From positions 372,001 through 403,384 of the forward strand of contig QPGO01000073.1 in the NCBI GenBank assembly GCA_008632985.1: a stretch of DNA of 31,384 nt. The letters run 5' to 3'. Position 1 is the first letter of the stretch. Each line of letters opens with the position of its first letter. The stretch comes from Psammoneis japonica (Eukaryota). Both the position numbers and the translations under genes were made by a program. The notes below the pieces were generated by a model. The model was given only the letters and a program-made list of their open reading frames with translations, was not told the origin of the DNA and did not search any database. Positions 2,505 through 30,005 of the stretch are shown piece by piece.

Positions 2505-3375
2505 ATAAAACAAGGAAGACAATTGTGATTTTTGTGTACAGACAGCAATAGATTGTTGTTTTAGAATTGCGCCAGAGAGAGGAGAGAGAAACAATGGCAG
2601 GAGACATTTCTTTATGCTTTTCTCATTTTAAAGGCATTGACGACCCTTGAAACAAGGCCAGTTCTTCAGAGTGGAAGAGAACGGACTCAAGCGTTGGATT
2701 GATGGCACGGGGCTTGGTTGCTGGGTTCTTCTTTCTGGCCAGCAGCCATCTCTGTTTGCTGGAGCACAGAGTGCTGGCAGCCTGGATCTAGTGGACAGAA
2801 AACCTGCTGCAAAGGAGTGGCTGTGCCTGCATTGGCAGCAGCCGGCACTGCATCATCTTCCCACACAATGTGTGGGGGAGTGCCGCCAACTCAATTTCTG
2901 AGCTTTTGATGCTGGTGACTCTCCAGGGATGTGGTGTGGAGAGGCAAAAGCCAATGTGTTTTGGCCATTTGCAAAAAAGTGCACAAAGAGAGAAAAAGCC
3001 TCACTGGACTGTGATCTGGTGGGGCGGCATGTTGCTTTCAAGAAAAAAAGAATGACGCGGGTTTCTGCCGACCGAGCAAAATGTTGGCTCTCCAGAAAGA
3101 AGTGGGCTGCCATTCACAGGGACCCAAGTCCACTGTTGCAGAATGTTTGGTCATTTTGTGCACACATGGTGCTTGCATTCCATGCAGCTCTCATGGCAGC
3201 TTTGGTGGCTGGGAGCAAGGTGAGACGAGAAAGCAGGGTGCGTGACTGACGCCCTTGACACCAACTTTGATCAAATCTTCAGCGGCTTGATCCTCAAGCC
3301 CATGAGGTGGGGCATCTTCATGAAAAGCTCCCTGCATTGATGATGCAGAGTTGGCACATGGGGTGGTGCAGGCAA

Positions 3376-3851
3376 TGTTTGTTTGTTTGTTTGCCTGTCA
3401 GATTCTGAGGTGGACGTGTCTTTGGCCAAAAGGTGGCCCATGTTTGCTCTTGTGCAAACAGTGCACCTGCTGGCCCGTGACTGCAACAATGGAACAACAG
3501 AGTCAGTGCATTGGGCATTGCTTGTTTGTCTGTCAGGTGCATGGGTGGCACACATCTTGAGCCACAAGGCTGTGCATTCTTTGCTTTGTGTGCACAAACA
3601 ACACCAGCTGGCCCACACTCACAAAGGCACCACCGCCAGCACAGTTCCACCAAATGCCTCAATGGTTGTGTGAATGGCACAGAAATGGCACGTGGGTGTT
3701 GTTTGTTTGTCAAGCATGCAGAAGAGGAGTGAGGTGCATGTCTTGAGTTACAAGGGGGCTTTTCACTCTTGCTTTGTGTGTGCACACAAGCAACACCTGG
3801 CTGCTGTGCTCACAAAGGCTGGCTCAACTCTGCCAAGTGCCTCAACAGCTG
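3376..3851. repeat. Degenerate tandem repeat, about 3 units of 145-180 bp
   Basis: Recurring TTGTTTG(T/C)(C/T)TGTCA ... TCTT ... TTGCT(T/C)TGTG(TG)CA ... CACC.GCTG. Units 2 and 3 also share CTCACAAAGGC ... CCAA.TGCCTCAA. Units start near 3380, 3521 and 3698. Confidence 0.55.
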
Positions 3852-4034
3852 TTGCTTTGAGTGCTCATTGGCTGTCTTGCATCTTGGCTGCACAACCCAC
3901 CACCATTTGTGCTCCAGCAGTGGGAGAGAGTTCCCCAAGCTCTGCTTTGAGTTCATGTGAACTCTCTCTCCTGGGACTTGTTCCAGTCTCAGGTGCACAC
4001 ATGCACAAAAAAATGCCCTTTTCAACAGAGTCAA

Positions 4035-4499
4035 GGGTGGAAAATCCCTTGTTTTGGGGGGAATTTTAGCAATTTCACAGGCAAAATGGCTAAAACAAGA
4101 CAGTGATTTTTGCAAACGTGCACAATCAATGGAAAAACACACTCAAACGGCTTGAGTGTGAATGCCGAGCGAGCTCACTGTGCAAACAACAACACAACAC
4201 AATGGCCGAAATGCCATTTGTCAAACACAGTGGAGGTGGGGAGGCCTCCAACTTTCTTCACAAGTTTGTCACCCACATCAAACATGACACACTTGTGAAA
4301 AAAAGGTCAAGGCTGCCCCACTGAGTTTTCAAGAAATGACGGCATTTTTTGGCCATTGTTGTGTTGTTTGCACAGTGAGCACAGAATGGGTTGGCGTGTG
4401 TTTTTCCACAATTGAGTCACAAATGAAGAAGACACCACCAGTCATTTTTGGTGCTTTTTGCACCAAATGCATGAAAAAAAAGCAAGAGATTTCCCACCC
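4035..4499. mobile_element. MITE, decayed copy A (same family as 14340-14783)
   Basis: Termini GGGTGGAAAATCCCTTG ... CAAGAGATTTCCCACCC. Colinear over its whole length with copy B. Flanked on both sides by TCAA (4031-4034, 4500-4503), where copy B has TTAA. Confidence 0.88.
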
Positions 4500-5186
4500 T
4501 CAAAACCCAATGAATTTCAAATGTGTTGATGTGGGCGTGCATGCAGAAAGGTCTTGTTTGTGCAATCATGTGTGCAAAACTGAGGATGCACAAGATGACA
4601 TGGGAGCTCAGTTTTCCAATGAGCAGTTTGTGGTCCCAAGCACAAGTTGCTCTCAATGGAATGAATGAAAACACTTGTCATTGACAAATGAGTTTTAAAA
4701 GACATGAGAAGATGTGAAACTCAGCCCATGCAATGGAGCCAGCTTTGGACACTTTTTTGCCACTTTGATGACACAAATGACTGGGAGTGCTTGTGCCGGT
4801 TGATGGTTGATGACACGGAGGAAGCGCACATGGCAGTGTGAAAAAGAGCTTGCCCTCAGAGACCAACTGTGAGTGAAATGAGGCTCAATTGTTGATGCTG
4901 ACAGATGTGTTTTTTTCTGCTGTGCTGCAGATTGCAACAGGCATTTTTTGTCATTGCCATTGATGGCACAGACTGTGTGAAATGCCATGGTCCTTGTCAT
5001 GTCATTCAATTTTCCACAAAACTGAAAATGGCAGGCTGTCATGGTTGCTGAAAGCCATGGCCATTTTGGCTGTGTTGGTTGGCTTGAATTTCATCTTTGC
5101 AGCTGATGTTGAAGAAAACACAAAATGTTTGTTTTTTGTGAAAAAAAAAACTACGAGGTCCCACCTGCCAGGGCTGGAACTCATCA

Positions 5187-5700
5187 CAAAACTGGGTCCA
5201 TCCTGCCAGATTTTCTTTCCACTTTGTTCTCTCCACAGTTCTTCCAGCAGGTCTTGTAGACTGGGAAAGGTCTGCACTGCCTTGCACCATCTTTGACCTG
5301 CAAATCATCACTGAACACAGCCATGCAGTCTAAAACTTGTCCATCTCTTTCTCTCAAATGCTTCGCTCTTTCTTTGAAAAGTGCTGTGTTGACAGAATCT
5401 CTGTCTTCATTTCTGTGTGTTGTGTGCTTTGTGTCCTTGGGCAGCTGCTTTCATTTGTCATGTCCATGTCTGCAAGTGTGACTTTTCCATGATCCCAGAA
5501 GCGCTTCAGAAGCTTTCCCCATTTTGGGTCATCCTTGAATCTGTGCATGCCATGCAGCTCGTCCATGCAGCACTTCACCCAATCTTGGAATTCCACACGT
5601 CTCTTTGCACAAAGGACAGATGTTGCAACCCACTGGTGCTCTGGCTGCCTGGAATCACCTGCAGACACTGCGTTCATCCCTCTGCAAGGTTTTCCCAGGC
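5187..5700 (-). mobile_element. Decayed PIF1-family helicase fragment, probably from a Helitron
   Basis: GKPCRGMNAVSAGDSRQPE resembles PIF1 motif III (PFGG.N...GDF.QL). ELHGMHRFKDDPKWGKLLKRF..GKVT.AD resembles motif IV. After a frameshift it continues LPKDTKHTTHRNEDRDSVN...CWKNCGE...RMDPVL and then breaks off. Confidence 0.72.
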
Positions 5701-7707
5701 TGTGCTTTAATGTGGCTTTCTGGTGCAGGTTCAACACATCAAAGTGCATGGTTGTACATGCAATGCCATTCATTTTTATCTTGCAATGTGCAAGACTGCC
5801 TTGTGGCTTCTTCTGTCTCCCTCCGACACAGCTGAAAAAGCAACCACATGTCTTGACTGGTGTGAGCAGTGCAAGCTCCATTTCGGCCAGAGATGTGTGG
5901 GGCAAACAGCGCACCCACAGCGTGCGACAAGCACTTTGTCAAGAGAGCACAAAATGGGTCAGAGCACAACACAAAGGAGGCAAGGATGACATGCGTTCAT
6001 CTGCCAGCATTGGCCCTGCCGGGCACACAACCCTTGCCGGACCAAATGCAGCCTTTGCAATGGGACCACTCACCCCGGGTCCCACCGTTGGAACATTGGG
6101 CAGCCTGTCCCCTGCCGTCGATGTGGACTCCAGGGTTTTGAGGGGGTGGCAAACCTCTCTCCAACAAAAAAAAGGGAGGAGCTGGAGACAAAATCAAGAA
6201 GGCCCTGAGTGAGCACAGCTGCACGCACTGCAAGAAGCCTGGTGGTCTCCAGTTGTGTGGGTGACACTTTGGGCCAGCAGCGCACCTCTTTGGGTCGCAG
6301 TTTGGCTTCTCCATTGTGGAGCTCACCACAGAGGATGTGATGGGGGCAAGGGTGGGGGTGCAGTGCCCAAAGCCAACCTCAAAGACTTGGGTGGAACTAG
6401 CTCACTTGTTCAAGCTGAGGTCTGACTGTGGCACATTTTTTCCAAAGCTTCTGTCCATGCCAAAAAATTGCTGCATCAAGTGAAAATCAAACCAGGAGTT
6501 GGCAGTGCTCAAAGACTCAATTGAAAATGACTGCTGTGAGCTCCTAGAGAACCCGGCAGCTGTTTTCCAGCATGGTGAAAGCAACCCCCAAAGCAGCCAA
6601 GAGGTGGAGCAAGTCTCCAGTGAGTTGGCCCAAGCTGAGGTTGAAGTCTTGCTGCTGGTTGCACTTGAGCCAGAGAGCCCAATGCCAGCAGCAGCACCAC
6701 TGGTTAACTGCTCTAGCACAACAAGTGGCCCATGTTGCAAGCACTGTGAACAATGATGGAAAGGGGCCAACCAGAGACAGTGCAGCGCAGCTCCTTTTGG
6801 GTGCCCCAGACCAGCCAGTGAGTGTTTGTGGCACAGACAGGAGGAGTGCATGCCAGTCAAACAAAAGAGCATTGCTGTGAGTGTGCCAGAAGCTGCAGAA
6901 GGGTGCAGTTCTTGGGTGAGGCAGTGGCACAAAAACAAGCGCCGTGCAGAGAGGGCTGCAGAGCTCTGAAAGAAAAAGAAACAGCAGCAAGTCACACTCA
7001 GTTCTGTGCAAAAATCAGTGCCAAGCTCTGTGGCAAAAAACCAAAAAACATCAGGCCCACATTGCAAGAGCACCGAGAGAGCTCCTTTGTTGTTGCCACA
7101 AGGGCTGGGTGGCACACAAGCTTGAAGCAACACCACACTGGGGGGCCAGCGGCCACAAGCTGGCAAACAACAGCAAAAAAAAGAGTGGTGGAGTTGGGCA
7201 CAGTTGCCCATGGCTGAAGAAGACAGAGAAAAGTTGAGCTGTGTGCTGACTGTGAGCAGGGATGAGCGCCACACTGTTCACCACCCAAGCACAGCCACGT
7301 TCTTTTCTCTGCACTTTTCGACGTTGGCCTGAGGACTGGAGCATGCTGCCATTCTGCAACAGCCCTCAGCAGACCAACATCTCTTGAAAATCAAGTGTGG
7401 CAAATGGGTAACAGTCACTGTCACTGCCAGTTTGGGTTGATCCGGCTGGTGGTGGCATTGAAAAAGGTCAGCACAAAAAAGTCTAGAAAACGTCGCGTGC
7501 GGACAGACCACCACTGCGAAATGCTGAACGTGTGGTGACACCCAAGTTCTAGAGGGATGACAAGATCTACTGTGTTGTGAACTACACTACCCTGTGTTGC
7601 AACTATGAGCTTGGTTCTCAGTGTTGTAGTTTGTTACGCAATGATCACGAATGCACCTGTCAGATTTTGAGCGCATCTTTTGCCCAAAACAATTTTTGCG
7701 CACCGCG

Positions 7708-9792
7708 TTAAGCGCATTGCTTGTTTTGACCATTTCCTGTGAATCCATTGCAGCAATTGCTGCAATTTCCAGTGCATGTCACACCTGCACCATCACAAGG
7801 AGGTGGACTTGCCACTGGCGCTGGCGTTGAACCGGGTTGACCGTTGCACGACTTGTTGTTGCCGCTTCCAGAGTATCCATAGCAGCAATCGTTGCAGGCA
7901 CCACCCGAGCACGGACCTGGTCCGAGGCACGGTTCTGTTGGAGAAAACGATGGTGACACAGTCGGAAAAGGCGTCGAGCTCAACGTTGGTGATGCGGTCG
8001 GAGAAGGCGTCGGGCTCAACGTTGGTGAAGGCGACGGTTCCGGCGTTGGAGGCGACGCGCCTCCCAAAACATTGCAGGCTGCAGGATAATGCGCCTCCAG
8101 CATCTCAGGCAGGACCACTTCTCCAAAGGCCGTGAGTACATCTTCCTGCATGTCCCAAAAGTTGGCTCTCAGATATCGCGGGAATTCAATTTGAACACCA
8201 TCAATCGAACCTCCAGACTGACTTCCGTGAGTTTCAACGTTGTAGCCACCCTGAAAATACGATTCTCCTTCAGCTGGAGCGCTAACCATGGGTGATGGAA
8301 CGGACAAGTATCCAGACGCGTTTGCAGCAGTCGGCAGCTCAAACAGTGCCCCCATACTCCAGATGCCACGCACGATACTTGAAAAGGAAGCGTTATTGTG
8401 CGTGGGCATGTTCTTGATAGAGCTCGTATAAGCCAGGCCGTCCACAAAAGAGTCATCTTCGCGTAATTGACTAGAAGAGAGCTTGTATCCTAGTTCAATG
8501 CGCGCTTCGGGATGAATGTGTCCATGAAAGTCAACAAGCAGACCGGCACCGCATGGGTGGTTGTTTTCAATGTCTGCTCGTGCGGCGGTGGCAAAGATGT
8601 GGAAATCGTTGTATGTGTCAATAGCCGTTTGGTCAAACTGCGCCGCCTCGTCGATTTCGCGATTGGGATCGAGCTTGATTCGACCAAGACGATTGACGAC
8701 TAAATGGCATGTCTCTCCCGTATACGCTTCAAAGACGTCATTAGCTCTGCGAGCCATGTCTTGGGTGTTTTCGTCGTTTGCGGTAACGGCACGACAATTG
8801 GTCGAATCCTCTGGTGTACACGTTTTGCTCCAATCACAACTTGTACCATCCCAACATCCGTGGGTACGGTCGTCAATGTCGCCGGGATAAAGGTCGCCAT
8901 CGTGACCCGTGAGAATGATGCATGCCGCCGTTCCGGGAATGTATTCAGTGTACCCGTTGGCTCCGCGTTGACCTGTGCGAATCGTAAAGGGAGTTGATGG
9001 TGCTTGGTAGTCAGAAAGACGAATTGAAGAAGTTGACGTTGTCTTGAAGCGTTTGCGATTGACCATCCACTCCTTGAGGGTATCCAGTGTCGCAGACTGC
9101 ACAAGAAGCATATATTAGAAAAGAACGGAAAGATGGTGAGAGGAACAGTTTCCAAAAATAAGTTGTCCTTTGTATCTTGGTTTTTGACTTTTTTGCCTTA
9201 CCTTGGCATACCAGGGTCGGTACCAAAAGCTATCGGAGTGATCGAATGAAACCGCCGATACTCCATCCACGAGACCGGTGGGCACGGCGCTCTGATCCGA
9301 TCCCGATACGCTAGCGCAATCTTCCCAACCTCCCGTTGAGTCAAACGCAAAAATCAAGCTAGGGCTGGTCGTGTCTCCTTGATAGATAATGAGCTGGTCA
9401 CCATTTCCAGTGGTAAACGAGACAGTACCAGACAAAACCTCCCACTCCAACCCTTGTCCTTGGGGAGTGCTTTCGTCCTCAAATTCAAAAACGCTGCCAG
9501 CCGACACGGCCGTTTGAGCGGTGAATTTGATGACAGATTCACCGGATTGAAAGCCACTACAAGTCCACCCCTTGTCGGTAAAAAAGATTTCCGTTCCTGC
9601 TTCCAGTGACACCCAAGTCACAAATGCAAAAGCGTCGGGGTCATCCGAAGCAAAGGCAACAATCTGAATGTCGTTTGGAGAAAGGACTGTTGCAGCGTTG
9701 GTAAGGATCAGTTTGCTCGAGGAAAATAGTAACGCCGCCACCAGTGTCAGAGCGGCGTTGGACAAAAAAAGAAGCGGTGATGAGCTAACCAT
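7708..9792 (-). CDS. Secreted protein of about 659 aa: signal peptide, lamin-tail-like beta domain, N-formylglutamate amidohydrolase-like metallohydrolase, Pro/Ser/Thr linker and two Cys-rich repeats
   Basis: ATG at 9792 followed by a hydrophobic leader. A phase-0 intron at 9201-9097 (GTAAGG...CTAAT...TGCAG) joins the two listed ORFs. Motifs DIQIVAFASDDPDAFAFV..GTEIFFTDKGW, ILTGHDG, DENT, RIKLDPNR, LVDFHGH, GGYNV, QIEFP. Confidence 0.78.
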
Positions 9793-10177
9793 GGTCAAGA
9801 GTGAAGATGAAGAGGCAGGAGAGCGACGAGACAACAGACAAGCGAGTCAAAACAATGTTTCTTGAAGCCAATCTGAAATCCGTGTTGTGTTTTTTAGCAT
9901 AATACTTGTATAACTTCAAGTGACTCTCTTAAAAAGTAAGATAGTCGTACGACAGTTCGAGTCTTGGTTCAAGTTCAGTATTTATTGTCAATGACCTTCT
10001 CCAGGCACTCTCCACCGTGAGCCTCGCTGCGCGCTGTATGGTAGGGCCCGCTTACCGCTTATTTGCCAATCCGTTCTGCGGTGCCTATCATATGTGGATA
10101 TGGTAGAGGTAGTAGAGCAGGGAGCATTTTGACGTCGGGAAGTCTATTATTTGCATTACTATATTTTTCAAAACGTC

Positions 10178-19500: not shown

Positions 19501-20674
19501 GATGGACAAGCTTCCTCCCCAGCCTGACTGCGTCCTTTCTTGTTTCGGCAAGCTTGGACTTGATCATGAAATCGACCGCCTTGGAACCCACAAAAGTCTT
19601 TTTATATACCTTTAATCGGTACATGTGATCTTTTATAGGCATTTCATTCTCAAACACAAATGCAGCCTCTTGCAGCGGAGGGCATGACTTGTCGTGTTGA
19701 TGCTCGGCGTTACTGCTCGTGTCGTTATGGTCAGCATCGGAATGCGCGAATCGCTCGTCTTGAGGAGTAAAGCAATAAAAGAGAAAGTCGTCTCTAAACT
19801 CGTGCTGATTTAGGACGTGTCGAAACAGATTGTATTCTCTGGTGAGTGCTCTCCCTAGTTCCACAGCATGGTGTCTGGATCGGGCCATTCCTGATATCAC
19901 CATGTAGTCGACCGCGTCGCTTCCAATGAAAACATTATTGTACGTCTGAAAATGATACCGTAGATCTTTTGTTTCGATTTCATTTTCAAATGCCTTGGCC
20001 AATTCACTCAAGTCTTGAAAGGATGATGCCGAGTTCAAGGACAAGGATCCGAGAGAGCCTTCCTCCGAGTCGTCATCAAGCAATGCATGTCCATACGTAT
20101 GCATAAAACACCCAACTTCGTCTTGGATGGACACGAATCGATGATGCTTTGGAACAAATTGAAAGAATAAATATTCGTCTTTAAACGAGTGCTGTCGACA
20201 AACATGCTCCATCAAATTGTACTCCTTCATGAGGGCATTTCCAATCTGCACAGCATGCTTTCTCGAGTCTGCGAGCTTGTTTTTGACCAGAAAATCGACC
20301 GCCTCTCTAGCTACAAAGCAATTTGGATAATTCCGAAAGTGATACTTGTGATCCGATACCTTCATGCCGTTCTCAAATATTTCTCCAATGCGCATTAGAC
20401 TCATACCGTCCAACGAGCTCGCCAGGGAATATCCCGATTCGGATCTAGTAAAGTCGTCTGTAAAGCTGCCGCCTCTCGAGTTGATGGAAATATCTCTGGG
20501 CGGTGAAAAGCTCAGACCGTTTTCATAATGACTTTCTTTGTTAGTTTCGTGAGAGACAACCAATGTCGACATGGATGATAAGCGTGGATCACTGACGGGT
20601 GGTGGTGGTTCGGACGCGTGATCAAGTACTTCTAGTCGATCATCTTGCTTGCAACATTGAAAGATGCGCTTCAT
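16580..20674 (-). CDS. 1364-aa protein: six tandem DEP domains plus a C-terminal class II (edema factor/CyaA/ExoY-like) nucleotidyl cyclase-like domain
   Basis: Uninterrupted 4.1-kb ORF. Six repeats of consensus Y..TF.G..AVDF.V....A..R..AV.LG..L....LFEHV...H.FKD.YLFY.F (DEP). C-terminal WRP..GKGLDIKGKS..G.LSGFVPF.Q, VSDFDCF and VRHGAECFN..FPQ. Confidence 0.85.
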   Translation of the reverse strand: MKRIFQCCKQDDRLEVLDHASEPPPPVSDPRLSSMSTLVVSHETNKESHYENGLSFSPPRDISINSRGGSFTDDFTRSESGYSLASSLDGMSLMRIGEIFENGMKVSDHKYHFRNYPNCFVAREAVDFLVKNKLADSRKHAVQIGNALMKEYNLMEHVCRQHSFKDEYLFFQFVPKHHRFVSIQDEVGCFMHTYGHALLDDDSEEGSLGSLSLNSASSFQDLSELAKAFENEIETKDLRYHFQTYNNVFIGSDAVDYMVISGMARSRHHAVELGRALTREYNLFRHVLNQHEFRDDFLFYCFTPQDERFAHSDADHNDTSSNAEHQHDKSCPPLQEAAFVFENEMPIKDHMYRLKVYKKTFVGSKAVDFMIKSKLAETRKDAVRLGRKLVHQYNLFEHVCNEHDFQDDYFFYRFVPPERRITPDDEDSQHDVLFPDAYSDHSHVSSVGNSGNTPSLLQVANAFRKGVHVGTHVWRFKSYRNTFVASQAVDFLVNSSFAQTRREAVVLGRRLASEMHLFEHVTGDHSFKDDYLFFKFTSEKEKARRKESFASDMTSESDSLHLIAQSLRANVRVADNKYRMRTYKDTFIGREAVDLLVEEGLAENREHAVELGRQMATSFNLFEHCVRQHEFKDAYLFYRFVNMGELKPRVTRDDITDDTVVDLRELNEIAIEFEKGVKTSENRHHLRVYKDTFVGSDAVDFLVSRDASLSREDAVHVGQLLARAFNLFEHVSRQHPLKDEHLFYRFNPKSERYTYDLEKLAKFEETPVDTIGETTVSSTNDKDDGFSFSTKVERSQSFSMPAKSASTGDVKSFSAGSLDIHRRASVPVRPAAALRKADRVKIWSTTFRRVDPRYQILSAVNIVTQEKAYSLQDGIDRDVISDLLRGTDLAPMVFSIWRPTSFDAIRRMMLNEGTGKGLDIKGKSAKRGKLSGFVPFLQINENRHKYKVRTLPKDGRVRLFFKNKRAREVAAAKLEAVGQDMIETVRQASKILSNDRASESSQRDALKSMLLDVTDPSIIYIDDYSPQSYGMDLSVRVFWEACFVRQDCTRRAGSEFDTGRPSLPPFQDMNFASLRNRSTRNVKGMPKAVVLQYGTDDPLSPFEFVMAYEENGRVLPVVSDFDCFLIGTRNVRYSAPLPPDQLEVLTWCVDKIEEILESPPRPHSWTSRWLEVLRDSANDGFHPKVPQLGFGDPVSYSTMENTIHRLTSTAGPVRHGAECFNYYFPQDLDDEYLVISDTVPGNVCWKYLNVDELQDFLSEKIDGGYTFPLNPKNVLCDGGRWKELYDKLIASRMPHVQESMNVWYPENSGLRKQIEAIHSKHPEGFQRESLAEDSSRFCLEKNQPKDASFKITMESTNTILDVAA

Positions 20675-21163
20675 TTCTTTTATTTAAGTCAGTACCAGAA
20701 GTCAGATACCTTGAGCGCCTCAATCTATGAGAACTTAGCTAGAAGGGGAGTCAAAGAGAAAGAATAGATAAGGCATGCACAAGCAACACACACTCTTGAA
20801 AAATGCTCTTGCGTGTTGCGTGTTCCATCGCGAAGTTGCTCGCATGTTCGAGTGAAGGTCACGTTTGTCTTTGTTTATTGTGACATTTACAGAGATGTAG
20901 AAAATCGTATTATGACATAAGAAGGTCATATTCAATATAACGTAATTTAGAAAGCGTCCGATTCTTCAATTAACATTAAAAAATAAAAAGGAATGTCAAA
21001 GTCATTTTGATAGGTTACAGAGAAACCGATCACAAAAAATGACGCTCCGCTTGACAAAACTGCTTCTTTCCCTTTCCCCGCCACAAACATCGCATTACTT
21101 GAGTTGGCTATTGCATCTGACCATCGCTACTCCCCAATTCAACTTCACAAAGACGACCGCGAC

Positions 21164-22543
21164 ATGAAGAATGGGTACAGCAGCAGGCCCCAAAACCGGA
21201 GCGTTGTCGTTCATTGGCGTGCAGTGACGTTTGTATTTTTGATTGGTCTCTCGTTTCGTGGATTACACACAAACTTGAACGTGTTTCACTTGTTCATTCC
21301 AAAGTTTCTCGGCGAACAGACTCTAAGAGCGTTCGAAAGCAACGGTTTGTTTTCCAGCTCGTATAAAACAAAACTACCAGAAGCTCTTTTGCCCGTTACT
21401 TTTTCAGGCTGTTGCACCGGACACATTACGATATTACATGCGACATGCCTTACAGAGAAAGCTTGCAATGTTTCGCATTATCCTTTTTCCTCACCACAAG
21501 AGGCGTCATACTTTAAAAGGTCGGTGCTTAATGGTACAGAGAAGATGGAGTTGAGAAGAATTTGCATGCAAGCTGCAGAGCGAAAACCGCCTCCCCTGCG
21601 GTGGTGCTCATCCCAAAATCTGCCGACAGATGAAAAATATCCCATGGGTTGTAGTCAGATCTCCATGGGCGGTGGGTCTGGGCCGTACGATCGAGTCTTG
21701 TTGTTTCCGCAAGGAAAGCTAGCATTTTGTGGAATACCCAAAGCCGGAGTCACGCAGTGGATACAGTTTTTGCGATTTACCTTTGGAGCAAAAGATTACC
21801 AAAGCCCGCCATACTCCAAATCGGATGTAGGACATGCCATGTTTGATGCTATGCGCAAGGAAGTACAAGACGAAATTTGGAATGATGAGTCTTGGACAAA
21901 GGCGATCTTTATTCGCAACCCGGCCGAACGTTTGTTGTCAGGATATCTCGACAAGATTGAGGGCAATCAAAGATTCGTTGGAGCGAACGTGACGTTTGCA
22001 GATTTCGTTGATTTTCTTGCAATGAAGCAAGTACTCAGGTTAGATTCAGACAAGGGCCGATCACAAGGCATGTTCACTGGACTGTCCTGGAGAACTGATC
22101 CGCACTTTCGACCGCAGGCCTGGGCTTGCGGATTGTCAGAGGAAATGGACACGTTTCAATACGTCGCGTCAATGGACCGTGTCGCCTTCCATACAAAGTC
22201 ATTGCTACAGCAAGTAAATATGTGGGATTCTTTTGGACGTCATTATCGTTTGTCAAATGGGACAAAAGACACCGCATATGTAAAGTGGCCTCCCGATCCT
22301 CTGCAACAACAAGACGAGGAACTGGGTTTCCAGCAACAAGTGGGTAAGATTACCGACTCGGCGCGAGCGCACAACACTGGTGCAACAAGCAAGATCGACA
22401 AATACTATACTCCGGAAGTAATGAAGAGAGTACGAGATCTGTATTCGATGGATTTTGCGTTGTGGGATGCACTTCAAGTCGCCGACAAGGAGGGCTTTGT
22501 ACACGGCAATGACATTGTGAAGAAACTGAACCCAAAGTGTTGA
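21164..22543 (+). CDS. Carbohydrate sulfotransferase (Sulfotransfer_2 family), type II membrane protein, copy 1
   Basis: 5'-PAPS-binding motif FCGIPKAGVTQW, 3'-phosphate-binding motif FIRNPAERLLSGYLDK, DPHFRPQ...C, and LYSMDF. N-terminal hydrophobic anchor. First ATG is at 21164. Confidence 0.9.
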   Translation: MKNGYSSRPQNRSVVVHWRAVTFVFLIGLSFRGLHTNLNVFHLFIPKFLGEQTLRAFESNGLFSSSYKTKLPEALLPVTFSGCCTGHITILHATCLTEKACNVSHYPFSSPQEASYFKRSVLNGTEKMELRRICMQAAERKPPPLRWCSSQNLPTDEKYPMGCSQISMGGGSGPYDRVLLFPQGKLAFCGIPKAGVTQWIQFLRFTFGAKDYQSPPYSKSDVGHAMFDAMRKEVQDEIWNDESWTKAIFIRNPAERLLSGYLDKIEGNQRFVGANVTFADFVDFLAMKQVLRLDSDKGRSQGMFTGLSWRTDPHFRPQAWACGLSEEMDTFQYVASMDRVAFHTKSLLQQVNMWDSFGRHYRLSNGTKDTAYVKWPPDPLQQQDEELGFQQQVGKITDSARAHNTGATSKIDKYYTPEVMKRVRDLYSMDFALWDALQVADKEGFVHGNDIVKKLNPKC

Positions 22544-23511: not shown

Positions 23512-24945
23512 ATGACGAACGAGGAAAGCAGGCAAAAACATCGGATCGTGAATTGGCATACGTTGACGTTTGCGAGTTTGATTGGTCTCTGTTTTCATGG
23601 ATTCCAAACGAGCTCAAGTTACTTTCACTCTTTCGTTCCAGAGTTCATAGGCGAACCGGCTCTGAGAGCTTTGGAATTCAACTATTTGTTTTCAAGCGAT
23701 ACTTCTCGCGAAAGTTCACTTGAAACGGAGCTGCCAGATGCTCTTCAACCGGTAACTTTTTCAGGCTGTTGCAGTGGACATTTTTCGGATTTCCATGCAA
23801 CATGCCTTACAGAGAAAGCTTGCAATGTCTCCTATTATCCATTTTCATCTCCGGAAGAGGCGTCATACTTTAAAGGATGGGAACTAAGCGGAAAAGAGAA
23901 GATGGAGTTGAGACAAAAATGTCTGGAGTACGCCGAGAGAAAACCTCCTCCTACACGATGGTGTTCATCAGAGAAACTTCCAACAGATGAGAAATACCCC
24001 ATGGGTTGTAGCATGAATTCCATGGGCGGTGGTTCAGGGCCTTATGATCGTGCATTAGTATTTCCGCAAGGAAAGCTGGCATTTTGTGGCATCCCCAAAG
24101 CCGGAGTCACGCAGTGGCTTCAGTTTTTGCGATTTACCTACGGTGCAAAGGATTACCTAAGCGTACCATATTTCAAGTCAGATGTAAGTTATTCTAGGCT
24201 CGATGTTTTGAGCGAAGAAGTGAGAGACGAAATTTGGAGTAACACATCATGGACCAAGGCGATCTTTATTCGTAACCCGGCTGAACGTTTGTTGTCTGGG
24301 TATCTTGACAAGATTGAGGGCAAACCAGTACATGTCGGTCACGCGAATGTGACCTTTGCAGAGTTCATCGATATCCTTGCAATGAAGAACATCACCAGAC
24401 TGAATTCAAAGAATGGCCCATCAACAGGAATGTTCACTGGGCTGTCATGGCATACTGATCCGCACTTTAGACCACAAGCTTGGGCATGCGGATTGTCTGA
24501 GGAATTGGACATGTTTCATTACGTCGCATCAATGGACCGTGTCGCCTTCCATACAAAATCATTGCTGCAGCAAGTAAATATGTGGGATTCCTTTGGACGT
24601 CATTATCGTTTGTCAAATAATGAAACAAACTCTATATTGACACCATGGAAAGTGTGGCCTCCCGAACCCCAGCTACAACGAGAAGGGGAGGCAGAACTGG
24701 GTTTCCAGCAACAAGTTGGCAAGATTACCGACTCGGCGCGAATGCACAATACTGGTGCAACAAGCAAAATCGACAAATATTATACTCCAGAGCTTATGAA
24801 GAGGGCGCGAGATGTTTATTGGATGGACTTTGCTTTATGGGATGCACTACAAGAGGCAGACAAGGAAGGCCTTGTACACGGCAAAGACATTGCAAAGAAA
24901 CTTAACCCAAAGTGTGGAATGCAAGAGTCGCCTTTAAAAAGCTAG
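23512..24945 (+). CDS. Carbohydrate sulfotransferase (Sulfotransfer_2 family), copy 2 (tandem paralog)
   Basis: Same motifs as copy 1, colinear, with high nucleotide similarity. Confidence 0.9.
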   Translation: MTNEESRQKHRIVNWHTLTFASLIGLCFHGFQTSSSYFHSFVPEFIGEPALRALEFNYLFSSDTSRESSLETELPDALQPVTFSGCCSGHFSDFHATCLTEKACNVSYYPFSSPEEASYFKGWELSGKEKMELRQKCLEYAERKPPPTRWCSSEKLPTDEKYPMGCSMNSMGGGSGPYDRALVFPQGKLAFCGIPKAGVTQWLQFLRFTYGAKDYLSVPYFKSDVSYSRLDVLSEEVRDEIWSNTSWTKAIFIRNPAERLLSGYLDKIEGKPVHVGHANVTFAEFIDILAMKNITRLNSKNGPSTGMFTGLSWHTDPHFRPQAWACGLSEELDMFHYVASMDRVAFHTKSLLQQVNMWDSFGRHYRLSNNETNSILTPWKVWPPEPQLQREGEAELGFQQQVGKITDSARMHNTGATSKIDKYYTPELMKRARDVYWMDFALWDALQEADKEGLVHGKDIAKKLNPKCGMQESPLKS

Positions 24946-26549: not shown

Positions 26550-26841
26550 GGTGTATAGTTCTAATCACAGGAGAAAGAGAAATGAAGTTGTCTGTGGCTG
26601 CCGCTGTACGGATCGAGGATCGAGAGTGAGTCGAGGATACCATTAGCATTGACTCTTTGATAGAGATGATGAGATGCACGATGCACGAATCGGAGATTCC
26701 CGCCCTGCACGCCGTCCGCGCACCATGCGGGAAAACTGCTCAAACGCGCATGCACGCAAGCACACGGACATGAGCGAACACTCCACTAAGTGACATTTAA
26801 CGGTCATGATTGAGAGTTCCAGTCTTGGCTTTTCCAACCGA

Positions 26842-26917
26842 AAGTTTGAGCAATTGCTCCAACTTGCATCCACCATTTGATTGCTCGAACTTGCCAAGTT
26901 TGAGCAATTGCTCAAAC
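26842..26917. repeat. Duplicated palindromic motif AAGTTTGAGCAATTGCTC; the second copy is part of a perfect 20-bp palindrome
   Basis: Copies at 26842-26859 and 26896-26913. GTTTGAGCAATTGCTCAAAC at 26898-26917. A partial third copy lies near 26877-26894. Confidence 0.8.
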
Positions 26918-27456
26918 ATGTCATCAGCAGAGGGGCGAAAAAGGCGGCATGAATTGCAGGTCATCGTCCCCCCACACTGAACCATTGCACGCACCGCTTC
27001 GTTCATTGGGCGGACCCCTCACTGCTTAAATTGCACGGCCGCTTGTTGGGATCTCACCTTTTTTATTTGTTTGCACGTGTCCATGTTTGTCCTTCATCTG
27101 GTCATTGCCCACCAACATTGTGGTGTGTCATTTTTCAAGCTCCGACTTTGGCAACTCAACAATCGCCTGACCGGCACATGTTTGCAGTTGTCCCAGCATT
27201 TTCATTCCATTTTTTTCTTTGTTTGCACTCAGTGACATCTCCAATTTCTGATGGCAAGTTGTGCATTTGATGCACTCATGTTGCTTGTTTGTTGGCACAA
27301 TGTGTTGCCACAGCGGCACAGGAGCCACCATGAACGGCGCTGCGATCATGAGCGCGTCACGCATGCTGGCTGTGCATTGAGCAAACCGAATCATGTCACA
27401 AACACTTTGTTTTGCTTGCAATGATTCCACGGCAATTTCACCACATCAATTTTTGC

Positions 27457-29190
27457 TCACTTTGTTCTTTCTGAAGTTGACACTGGGGAATCCGCGCACC
27501 CTCGCGCAGCCTCCATGTCCCCTTTTTCTGGAGGACAATGGAAACACAACAGGCAATGAGGGCCTTTCTTGCAAGTCTGAACTGGCAGCTCACCCCTGAC
27601 TTTCCAGTGCTGCCTCATTTGTGGCACAATCCCAAGAATGGGTTGTTCCACTTTTTTTGATCTCTGGGACACAAGCTCAAGCGCAGTTCCCATTGCATTT
27701 GAAGCTGTGGCTGGACTTGCAAGGTGCAAAGGAAGAATGGGAAGGCCACCGGGTGGTTTGCTTTGCAGCACCAGAAAGTTGCAGAGGCCTTCAACAGCCT
27801 GGCTAGAGTGCTTTGGCAAGAACCTGACAGCCATGGTGGATTTCATGTGCCAGTTTGTCGAGTCAGAAAGTCTCTGCAATTGCTCAACGTTCCTTCAGAA
27901 GAGCAGCTTCATCAATGAAGCCAACTTCATGGCACAGATTCAGAGCATCACTGTGCCCATTGTGGAGACTTGTTTCCTCCCTCACATCATGTCCGAAAGA
28001 GGCAACAGCCACCACTGGTGCAAATTGGTCTTTTCTGAATGCTCACAACCAAAGACGATGGTGCACCCGAGCCATCTCCTTTGAATGGCTTCGACATGTT
28101 TGACAAGGTGGATGACATGGAATTTGTTCTCCAAGTGAAGGCCATGCCAGCTGATGCCTTTGATGGCATGCAGTGCTGTCAGGATGAAGTGTGCATCACA
28201 TGCTTTGATCTGCCGCCTCCCCACATTAACGAGGAGTGGACTCAAATGTTTGGTCAACCAGCGCGGGAGAAACTCAGTGCTGGATGGTGCAAAAACAAGC
28301 TCTGCTCAGTCCAGCTAAAAAACATGAGCCGAGGTGGCAGGAAACATGAGCACGAAGACAACTTGGACTGCTGCTGGCTCACATGCGACAACACTGAAGG
28401 TCTTTGCTCATTCGGCAAGGACAAGGTTGGCGACACTTGGTCATTGAAATTTTTGTCAAGCAGCTGTGGTGAGGCGGGAAATTGCTGCATTGACACGTTT
28501 GGAATGAGAGACCTTGTTGCAAGGGTGGGCTTTTTACACATGCCATCAACCGCAATTGCAGCCGGTTCATTGGGGATTGCTCTGGTCCAACTCATCTCTG
28601 CAAGGGTGATCTTTCCTCTCACCACCCTGAAAATTTCTTCCTTGATGATGGTTGCCCATGGGAGTTGGTTTCCTTGCGATTGAAGGGGGACACAATGCAG
28701 GATGCCATGGTGTTCCCTGCTTCAGTCATGTGGAATCGTTGGCTGTCATTGGCCAAGACCCCCATCTGCAATGTTGGTGATGACTTGGGTGTTCACAGTC
28801 ATTGTGTGCAGCTGGCAATGATGGCCAGCCACCAGATGGGCTTCAACTGCTTTTTCCACATCTGCACCAAACCACATGACTCACTGTGTGGTTGCAACTG
28901 TTTCGAAGCAACATGATCCTTTCATCTGCCAGCCGCAGTCGACAACTCATCTGGAGCCTGTGGCTGCTGACACACTTCATTGCACTGCACTCAACAAGCA
29001 AGGCAGATGCTGTTGGGCACCACACTCTTGAGGACAAAGAGACAACATGCTCCCATGTTCTCTTCTGCCATGTTCTCTCCAATTGAGTCCACAACTGGCT
29101 CAAGTTGGGAGAAGAGATGCACTTGTCAATGAGGAGCTCCTTGATCTTTCTCTGGCTGCCCACATGTCCATTGTCAACAATGGCTGTCAA
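27457..29190 (-). pseudogene. Decayed long coding sequence of unknown family
   Basis: Protein-like frames (…HHGILHCVPL..LPWATIIKEEIFRVVRGKITLAEMSWTRAIPNEP…; …RQIKACDAHFILTALHAIKGISWHGLHLENKF…) interrupted by TGA stops (consistent with CGA->TGA) and frameshifts. Tyr is absent and His/Cys are in excess. Confidence 0.45.
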
Positions 29191-29522
29191 GATGAGTTGT
29201 GTTCCGTGTGATGATGGCGCTGCTTTGCGGGCTTGTTGATGATGTGGTGGTCATGTGCCAAAAGCACGCACAGGAGTGCCGCAGCTGCATCAGAGTGCAC
29301 GACATCGCAATGTCTGCACACATGATAAAAACATGTTGCCACATTGTAAAATCTGCTTGTCCACACATGATGGTTTTTGTCATTTGGCCAATCATTGATC
29401 TCCTGCTGTTCTTCATGTTTGAACACAGATGTTTTTTAATTTTTGTGCTCTGCCTTTTTCACAACAACTGATGATCTTTAACGACAAGCCAAACATTTCA
29501 ATTGCATGCAATGAAATTTTCA

Positions 29523-30005
29523 TCATGTAAAGTGTGCACCAATTGTTTGGTCAACAACTGTGCTCCAATTTGCCCAGTCGTCCGCATCGTCCTCTTCATT
29601 CCATGTGTCTTGTCTGCTCTCTTGCAAGAATTTCAAATGTGCCACTGCTGCATTGGATGTTTCCTCGTCACCGTTCCAAAAAAGCCACGCTGCATTTCTT
29701 GCATTTGGGCGAACATCATCGAGAGGAAGAGGTCCCTCGAAGTGCTGAATCGCATCGCTGCTCCCCTCTTGACGTCGTGTCATTGGCTTCTTTTTGTCTT
29801 TCTTCATTTTGCCCATCCTGTTTTTCTCTTCCTTCCTTGTCTTGGCGCCGCCTGTTTTCACCGTCTCCAGCGTCTTTCCATCCGAATCCTTCTTTTTCAT
29901 TGATCCCGTCGCCGTTGCCTTCATCTCTTGTTGTTGTTGTTTTTTTTCTGTTGTGTCACTTTGTTTTGGATCCATGTTTCTGACTTCTCTCTGTGCTGTC
30001 TCCAT
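29523..30005 (-). pseudogene. 160-codon ORF, Lys-rich N-terminus and acidic/Trp-rich C-terminus; probably a TA-converted gene remnant
   Basis: Natural-looking charged composition, unlike the neighbouring spurious ORFs. No Tyr codons. Confidence 0.4.

Follow-up and report, generated by a model that had tools for sequence, protein, structure and literature searches.

Near-complete loss of TpA from three blocks of a diatom-like genome points to in-place hypermutation of silenced mobile DNA

The closest described system to the one considered here comes from the chlorarachniophyte Bigelowiella natans. According to the preprint of Mettrop et al. (bioRxiv 10.64898/2026.01.13.699255), 231 of the 302 new mutations of a mutation accumulation experiment fell in two integrated viral regions, and 230 of these 231 were A:T->G:C changes, all of them at TpA, on both strands and in only some of the lines; the same source reports 124 genomic clusters depleted of TpA and enriched in CpA and TpG, and names an ADAT2-like candidate enzyme. 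In this work we analysed a stretch of 31,384 nucleotides of the Psammoneis japonica assembly (contig QPGO01000073.1, positions 372,001 to 403,384; hereafter the window), which contains three sharply bounded blocks that almost lack TA. This signature has been reported once before, in that 2026 preprint on one chlorarachniophyte, and the window appears to add to it a diatom-like genome and a target of the Helitron-like kind; our search of the literature on diatoms together with TpA or hypermutation found no diatom report. We consider it likely that the blocks record in-place, DNA-level editing of silenced mobile DNA, from TpA to TpG or CpA on both strands, accompanied by an independent decay of CpG.

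The window resembles B. natans in the change itself (TA to TG or CA, on both strands), in its arrangement in discrete domains of kilobase scale, in the coupling of TpA depletion to CpA and TpG enrichment, in targets that are largely unannotatable and may be foreign or mobile, and in the raised polymorphism of these targets. When the thresholds of the preprint were applied, 10 of 31 scanning windows qualified, forming two runs of at least three each (3001-8000 and 27001-31000) and a single one at 13001-14000. The differences are also clear. B. natans is a chlorarachniophyte, whereas the named relatives of a gene in the window are diatoms; its targets are a giant virus and a virophage, whereas the identifiable target here is a Helitron-like fragment with repeats; and erasure is near complete here (Rho 0.02-0.09), as against 0.45 in its giant-virus region. 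De novo mutation was observed in B. natans, whereas in the window an end state is read from the sequence. Finally, the co-depletion of CpG and a probable preference for TAY over TAR (Y, pyrimidine; R, purine) set this locus apart, the term CpG having no occurrence in the main text of the preprint.

Extent and composition of the blocks

The initial annotation had described three sharply bounded, TA-poor blocks lying among flanks of ordinary TA and showing an excess of TG and CA, and our counts bear out each of these statements (Table 1). The observed/expected ratio (o/e) of TA was 0.05 in 2647-7540 (with 17 TA) and 0.08 in each of 12900-14335 and 26800-31384; the three gene-bearing stretches of the window gave 0.48-0.66. 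In their refined extents (Table 1), blocks 1, 2 and 3 contained 14, 4 and 14 TA where 183, 54 and 150 were expected, deficits with Poisson probabilities of 1e-59, 9e-19 and 2e-46, respectively, with TA in the window's normal DNA as the reference density. The o/e of TG and of CA was raised to 1.5-1.8, while that of CG was 0.22, 0.58 and 0.55 in the three blocks and 0.92-1.21 in the gene-bearing stretches. The GC content of the blocks (0.485-0.51) was the same as that of the flanks.

Refinement placed the edges at about 2630 and 7490-7550 for block 1, about 12955 and 14336 for block 2, and about 26798 for block 3, inside which TA is partly back at 30583-31001. The uninterrupted TA-free runs that had been claimed at 2791-3748, about 13198-13903 and 29530-30073 were recovered at 2789-3749 (960 nt), 13196-13904 (708 nt) and 29528-30074 (546 nt), and runs of the same kind lie at 28535-29326 and 27064-27804. 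The vanishing of Tyr codons and the appearance of open reading frames (ORFs) rich in Cys and His (about 3-7%) also held true, since the 18 translations of the blocks, covering every frame, contained 0-0.5% Tyr, 3.2-7.1% Cys and 2.8-6.0% His. The period-3 signal was low throughout block 1 and moderate at 27600-28600.

Table 1. Features of the window discussed in the text (positions are those of the window; aa, amino acids).
Feature	Position	Strand	Remarks
Block 1, TpA- and CpG-erased	2630..7549	none	TA o/e 0.01-0.07; CG o/e 0.18-0.22; TG+CA o/e 1.75-1.89
Block 2, TpA-erased, CpG loss mild	12956..14336	none	TA o/e 0.05; CG o/e 0.58
Block 3, cut by the window end	26799..31384	none	TA o/e 0.04-0.09 to 30583, then 0.18
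Multi-copy palindromic repeat, mutated copy in block 1	4033..4503	+	77% identity to 14338-14787
Multi-copy palindromic repeat, ordinary TA and CG	14338..14787	+	starts 2 nt past the end of block 2
DUF6570 domain remnant, block 1	5708..5890	-	56% identity over 55 aa to P0134; 48% over 61 aa to P0135
Unnamed conserved family (invariant E..HxD), decayed gene with frame shifts	27716..28928	+	block 3
Second fragment of the same unnamed family	30934..31344	+	matches P0007 residues 114-252, E 1.9e-18
ACSF4/AASDH-like gene, C-terminal ~500 aa	11732..13213	-	A10 motif, PP-binding, beta-propeller

Direction, strand and context of the changes

Transitions at TA and CG predict that what is missing of these two steps returns as TG and CA, and that the total of pyrimidine-purine (YR) steps does not change. 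Scaled to the normal DNA of the window, the missing TA plus CG against the extra TG plus CA came to 359/349, 72/61 and 228/233 in blocks 1, 2 and 3, and the YR total was 0.235-0.244 in the blocks and 0.239-0.260 outside them, implying that the blocks were shaped by such transitions.

The palindromic repeat allowed this balance to be followed site by site, as one of its copies lies inside block 1 and another just beyond block 2. At the 21 TA of the unmutated copy the block copy carries CA 12 times, TG three times and TA twice (CA or TG at 15 of 21 sites), and at the 26 CG of the unmutated copy it carries TG 12 times, CA six times and CG twice (TG or CA at 18 of 26). The two copies are 77% identical over ungapped columns (74% by BLAST, counting gaps) and are also separated by 38 transversions, so their divergence is old. 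As a control, the duplicated sulfotransferase genes of the window, which have diverged to a similar degree, retain TA at 24 of 54 sites and CG at 34 of 54.

Protein relatives led to the same view. In the DUF6570 remnant, all five Tyr of the relative P0134 (55 aligned residues) face Cys (four) or His (one), and one Arg faces Cys. Together with the 15 of 21 sites of the repeat pair and a TG:CA ratio of about 1:1, this amounts to the change described in B. natans, TpA to TpG or CpA on both strands. The block 3 ORF at 28039-28680 has no Tyr in 214 codons, whereas its aligned relatives average 3.6% (the other fetched proteins of the family range from 0.4% to 6.0%, most of them from 2 to 4%); in its alignment two conserved Tyr have become Cys, and two conserved Arg have become Trp or Cys. 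We conclude that the lack of TA in the blocks is caused by mutation and is not a native composition. The T:A->C:G transitions at TpA that the initial annotation had proposed are supported by the mass balance, by the repeat pair, by the change of Tyr to Cys or His and by the polymorphism at YR steps presented below, and gain backing from outside in the mutation accumulation preprint on another alga.

Both strands are hit, site by site, because the TG and CA outcomes are near equal (TG:CA counts of 533:508, 109:157 and 410:390 in blocks 1, 2 and 3) and unclustered (runs-test z of 0.6-0.8). The sites that survived carry information on the context of the change. Of the 32 TA remaining in the blocks, 19 are of the YTAR type, to which only 147 of the 813 TA outside belong (odds ratio 6.6, p 5e-7), and TTAA makes up 10 of these 32 but only 42 of the 813. 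If TA contexts in the ancestors of the blocks were distributed as in the normal DNA of the window, an assumption on which these expectations depend, the survival of TA is estimated at 0.8%, 6.1% and 27% when zero, one or two strands read TAR. By simple arithmetic, the three figures agree with an additive hazard per strand in which TAY exceeds TAR about 4-6 times. Back-mutation from CA does not account for the flanks of the survivors (p 1e-8). Judging from the surviving sites, the TpA process thus seems to prefer an A followed by a pyrimidine, that is 5'-TAY-3', or equally 5'-RTA-3' if T is the target, a flank preference that is new here. In keeping with it, Tyr codons, which are TAY, changed to Cys in six of seven events in the DUF6570 and block 3 alignments. 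As TpA is its own reverse complement, the spectrum leaves the chemical target as A or T. The surviving CpG showed a slight shift of flanks only (22% T-flanked, against 31% outside).

The loss of CpG is a second, slower process, separable from that of TpA, and this separability is also new here. In block 3 the o/e of CG was 0.29 in 27500-29300 and 0.74-0.81 in 29300-31384; its value of 0.74 in 29300-30583, like the 0.58 of block 2, was found where TA is equally depleted. Similarly, in the host-type coding stretch 12956-13213 a single TA is left while ten CpG remain, an ordinary CpG density. A separate decay of CpG had been claimed before, and both the change of CG to TG or CA at 18 of 26 sites and this uncoupling from TpA loss speak for it. 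Deamination of 5-methylcytosine (5mC) in methylated, silent DNA would be the simplest explanation. Methylation of transposons is known in diatoms. The CpG depletion with matching TpG and CpA excess that 5mC-driven decay produces was indeed found (CG o/e of 0.18-0.58, falling to 0.18-0.29 in the most decayed parts), but such decay cannot remove TpA, and TpA was lost without CpG loss in 29300-30583 and 12956-13213. CpG decay also covers only part of the excess in block 1, namely 190 of its 359 missing steps.

A comparison with the 31-mer contigs of a sequencing run (X1) added variation within block 1. In these contigs block 1 has a depth of 54-62, similar to that of the flanks, and its right edge is spanned (6829-8099); block 2 is represented by several contigs (four at 13405). 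Between the window and X1, block 1 contains 14 variant events, nine of them at YR steps: three double swaps between CA and TG, four exchanges between CpG and TpG or CpA, and two between TpA and TpG, the other five events being of different kinds. The block is also richer in variants than the flanks, with 16 in 3429 nt compared with 6 in 5451 nt (p 0.0015). The double swaps would be explained if a TpA or CpG had been deaminated on its two strands before replication and two lineages had inherited the products.

Targets of the editing and competing explanations

Pfam assigned no family at E <= 0.01 to any of the 99 stop-free ORFs that reach 70 aa in the three blocks; 56 more ORFs of 35-69 aa from block 1 gave three chance-level rows under the cut-offs (E 0.04-0.09), and 19 minus-strand ORFs of block 1 gave nothing relevant at E <= 10. 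No reverse transcriptase (RT), integrase or transposase domain was seen in the 155 stop-free ORFs (99 and 56) of these scans, and no terminal direct or inverted repeats at the block ends exceeded shuffled sequence in purine/pyrimidine space. The DUF6570 remnant lies within the minus-strand ORF 5357-5938, which Pfam does not itself score, and its assignment comes through the relatives P0134 and P0135, both of which carry PF20209. According to a published account, DUF6570 occurs in the same ORF as the RepHel transposase and marks HLE2 (Helentron-type) Helitron-like elements (PMC11417382). From the set Helitron_like_N, PIF1 helicase and DUF6570 that characterizes HLE2/Helentron, only a DUF6570-like stretch of 55-61 aa is present, Pfam scans of the block ORFs having detected no Rep or helicase domain. 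The relative P0135 (107 aa, from a public contig of 621 nt) is itself a DUF6570 fragment without any Tyr, with Cys, His, Asp, His, Phe, Cys and Phe at the seven Tyr positions of P0134, and may come from another TpA-erased copy in the same or another organism.

The palindromic repeat is a MITE-like (miniature inverted-repeat transposable element) or Helitron-associated hairpin element. Its copy at 14338-14787 has inverted arms of 49 nt at 14468-14516 and 14627-14675; the palindrome spans 14465-14675 (4175-4387 in block 1), with arms 96% complementary and spaced 110 nt. The summed X1 depth was 144-222 in the bins over the block 1 copy and 842-976 around 14338-14787, with flanks at about 56, while a search of metagenome contigs with two DNA patterns derived from the repeat gave no match for either. 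Block 1 also contains internal repeats of about 110-130 nt at 3383-3852 (3383-3491 with 3518-3629, and 3547-3669 with 3733-3852; about 84% alike), which were visible only after purine/pyrimidine reduction; the two-letter self-comparison of the window was noisy and otherwise returned known pairs only.

In block 3 the ORF 28039-28680 has 47 relatives (P0003-P0049, lengths of 129-5542 aa; best E 5.7e-19). A Glu, a His and an Asp (HxD) are invariant in both alignments of this family, and the Asn after them is fully conserved in one alignment and almost fully in the second. Because the invariant Glu has become Lys, the block 3 gene is a pseudogene. No Pfam family was found in any of 15 relatives tested, a search with the family profile reached no relative of solved structure (best E 0.72), and the Atlas had nothing usable. 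A fold model of the domain (predicted local distance difference test, pLDDT, 83.6) matched neither PDB nor viral entries at E <= 0.001, and no relatives were found in viral contigs. The possibility that the family is a TET/JBP-like HxD dioxygenase received no support.

One edge of block 2 falls within a gene. Residues 420-923 of P0001 align to 13213-11732, the ACSF4-like gene, with no counterpart for its residues 1-419 (the N-terminal adenylation core), and the TA-less state starts at about 12955, inside this coding homology, thus taking in about 260 nt of host-type coding sequence. X1 and a second run, X2, each have a contig about 85% identical to the gene over 12045-12984, so a second copy of it exists. 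The contig alignment ends at 12984, just inside the TA-less zone; it was made with an 80% cut-off, below which editing would drop the identity. The initial annotation had spoken of transposon DNA. The DUF6570 (Helitron-like) fragment, the multi-copy repeats and the decayed gene of an unnamed family sustain this in part, while the missing RT, integrase and transposase domains, the lack of a viral match for that family and the edge inside a host-type gene go against extending it to the whole. The repeat family carries the changes in block 1 but not 2 nt past the end of block 2, which fits an editing bounded by chromosomal domain or time of insertion and not by sequence family.

Comparison with other defence and decay systems helps to delimit the process. 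Repeat-induced point mutation (RIP) of fungi consists of C to T changes mainly at CpA, which create TpA. The blocks share with it irreversible, context-specific transitions that kill mobile DNA in place and leave a dinucleotide signature in bounded blocks; however, here TpA is destroyed and GC is not lowered, so that the mark of RIP was not found. Most of block 1 is, moreover, at single-copy depth in X1, and duplication therefore does not appear to be required. In animals, APOBEC/AID and ADAR likewise provide deamination-based innate defence with clustered, context-specific transitions. APOBEC, however, converts C to U on single-stranded DNA in TC and CC contexts and ADAR acts on double-stranded RNA, and neither gives A:T->G:C changes restricted to TpA on both strands of chromosomal DNA. 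Enzymes of the TadA/ADAT2 type, and the adenine base editors, offer the appropriate chemistry (A to I, read as G). They prefer T or U before the target A, and C follows it in the natural tRNA-Arg substrate of TadA. This context fits the TAY rule, although the natural enzymes act on tRNA or RNA and a DNA activity would have to be supposed here.

Taken as a whole, the blocks are probably what is left of mobile or duplicated DNA that was silenced in the nuclear genome of a diatom-like organism. They comprise the Helitron-like fragment, the palindromic repeat, the decayed genes of the unnamed family and a gene copy of which the truncated end remains. Within sharply bounded domains, A:T->G:C transitions at the DNA level, in place and on both strands, turned TpA into TpG or CpA, near to saturation, destroying Tyr codons and changing TAA and TAG into TGA, CAA, CAG or TGG, while the slower process removed CpG as TG or CA, presumably by 5mC deamination. 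The agent could be a DNA adenine deaminase recruited to silent chromatin, and the outcome would be a permanent genome defence. That this deaminase is TadA/ADAT2-like is a tentative assignment, prompted by the TAY context and by the candidate of the preprint. The broader idea that diatoms, like chlorarachniophytes, run a chromatin-targeted adenine-deamination defence on DNA, acting at 5'-TAY-3' on both strands of silenced mobile DNA down to the last few TpA, next to a 5mC-driven CpG decay, is more speculative still.

Among the alternatives, a chemistry directed at thymine, where a T modified at TpA (for instance of the 5-hydroxymethyluracil or base-J type), or the faulty repair of such a base, reads as C, is unlikely. 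The spectrum is blind to the base that is hit and the flank rule can equally be written 5'-RTA-3', but TadA-type enzymes work in a U-A-C context, with which TAY agrees, and the authors of the preprint point to an ADAT2-like candidate. We know of no thymine modification established to give near-saturating T to C change. The sharp edges, and the fact that block 2 ends on the right just where another element starts, would suit a hypermutation that took place before integration, on an extrachromosomal viral or transposon intermediate, in the manner of APOBEC editing of retroviral cDNA. Yet the nested repeat was mutated along with its host block and the TA-less state reaches into host-type coding sequence, and both observations argue against editing before integration; in-place polymorphism at TpA and CpG is seen between the window and X1, and in-place mutation was observed in the B. 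natans lines, which makes this route quite improbable.

Modified bases of heterochromatin that are miscalled, so that TA and CG are written as TG or CA, would affect both palindromic YR steps and give a random-looking outcome per site, as strand-dependent miscalls do, and neither for the assembly nor for X1 is the platform on record. Such a sequencing or assembly artefact is nevertheless very improbable in view of the X1 contigs, which reproduce the blocks at normal depth and run into normal flanks, of the stretches where TpA is lost with normal CpG, of the transversions in the repeat pair, and of the B. natans data, which are Illumina-based and show the same change as real mutations. It is no more credible that the blocks came from a TA-avoiding donor (a virus or another genome) or from selection against TA: the obscure origin of the block 3 family would be in its favour, but TA and CG both passed into TG and CA, an unmutated copy of the repeat is at hand, five of five Tyr were replaced while relatives have ordinary Tyr contents, invariant residues and reading frames were lost, and an edge falls inside a host-type gene. 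A-to-I editing of transcripts by ADAR- or ADAT-like enzymes, followed by reverse transcription and re-insertion, seems hardly tenable. In its favour, the discussion of the preprint mentions U as the base that enzymes of the ADAR type prefer ahead of the edited A; such editing, however, predicts TA to TG on the sense strand only, while TG and CA are near equal and interspersed, no RT domain occurs in the block ORFs, the identifiable element is of the DNA transposon type, and the changes extend to a nested repeat and to coding sequence of host type.

Some of our data weigh against in-place editing of TpA, or against its proposed context. The X1 run may be the assembly's own sample and would then not be independent proof against an artefact. 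The direction of change appears from one repeat pair and from distant protein relatives, and a profile-wide test of the block 3 ORF was not significant: among its 43 mismatches in conserved columns, four can be put down to TA or CG becoming TG or CA, where 1.9 are the mean under the null (P 0.10). As for the TAY rule, to the assumed ancestral context in the survival estimates is added its behaviour on the repeat pair, where the seven sites for which it allows one outcome (four ATAA, one GTAG and two TTAT), a small number, comprised three in agreement, one in the opposite sense (TTAT to CA), one unchanged and two transversions.

In-place editing of the kind proposed would mean that the process is not confined to one species. 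The saturated end state, the co-decay of CpG and the flank rule are new here, and an A:T->G:C hypermutation at TpA runs opposite to the usual mutation bias from GC to AT. The TAY rule, the independence from CpG decay and the targeting by domain instead of sequence family add testable detail, and ecologically dominant algae with genetic tools would be a place to find the enzyme. If the reading is true, A-to-I editing of DNA could be an old and widespread immune arm of the SAR (stramenopiles, alveolates and Rhizaria) supergroup, and the enzyme, probably derived from TadA/ADAT2, a ready-made adenine editor competent on double-stranded DNA or chromatin; a natural, chromatin-aimed DNA adenine deaminase would be of interest for both genome defence and base editing. 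The signature also explains the spurious Cys/His-rich ORFs and the missed transposon annotation in such regions.

Neighbouring genes and other observations

The stretch occurs in sequencing runs of one study, and no RNA data set was listed for it. The X2 run is transcriptome-like, covering genes at uneven depth and including one GT..AG joint (9096/9202). It gave no cover in 2671-4806, 5341-7476 and 13351-14418 (0.25 in the bin 4807-5340), which is evidence on the expression of the blocks neither way. At the joint an X2 contig leaves out 105 nt (9097-9201) whose CT..AC ends read GT..AG on the minus strand, so that 7708-9111 and 9115-9834, two separate ORFs, probably represent exons of a single N-formylglutamate-amidohydrolase-like gene with a Cys-rich Pro/Thr/Ser tail.

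The sulfotransferase genes used above as a control pair (21104-22543 and 23512-24945) form a tandem Sulfotransfer_2 duplicate with about 78% DNA identity and ordinary TA and CG. The first of them has 81 relatives, among which all rows that name an organism are diatoms; the best hits, which are unnamed, are 54-55% identical. The named relatives include Amphora coffeaeformis (46%), two MMETSP entries labelled 'Thalas...' and Stephanocyclus meneghinianus, and one relative carries the tag CCRYP, which we take to be Cyclotella cryptica. The genes that flank the blocks are eukaryotic, and the assignment to diatoms comes from the named relatives of this one gene. The long ORFs with few introns and the GT..AG intron of 105 nt suit a diatom better than B. 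natans, which is rich in introns.

An ankyrin-repeat gene at 14952-15743 has a TA o/e of 0.20-0.24 with TG/CA of 1.37-1.47, a summed X1 depth of about 300 and an exact match in an X2 contig. Its low TA is due either to the ordinary codon bias of a multi-copy family or to mild editing. In 1289-1545 the X1 contigs are at half depth (27-29, against about 56) and show many differences, which suggests two haplotypes or a close paralogue. Finally, the minus strand at 16580-20674 contains an unbroken ORF of 1364 codons with six DEP domains (Pfam E 1e-105).

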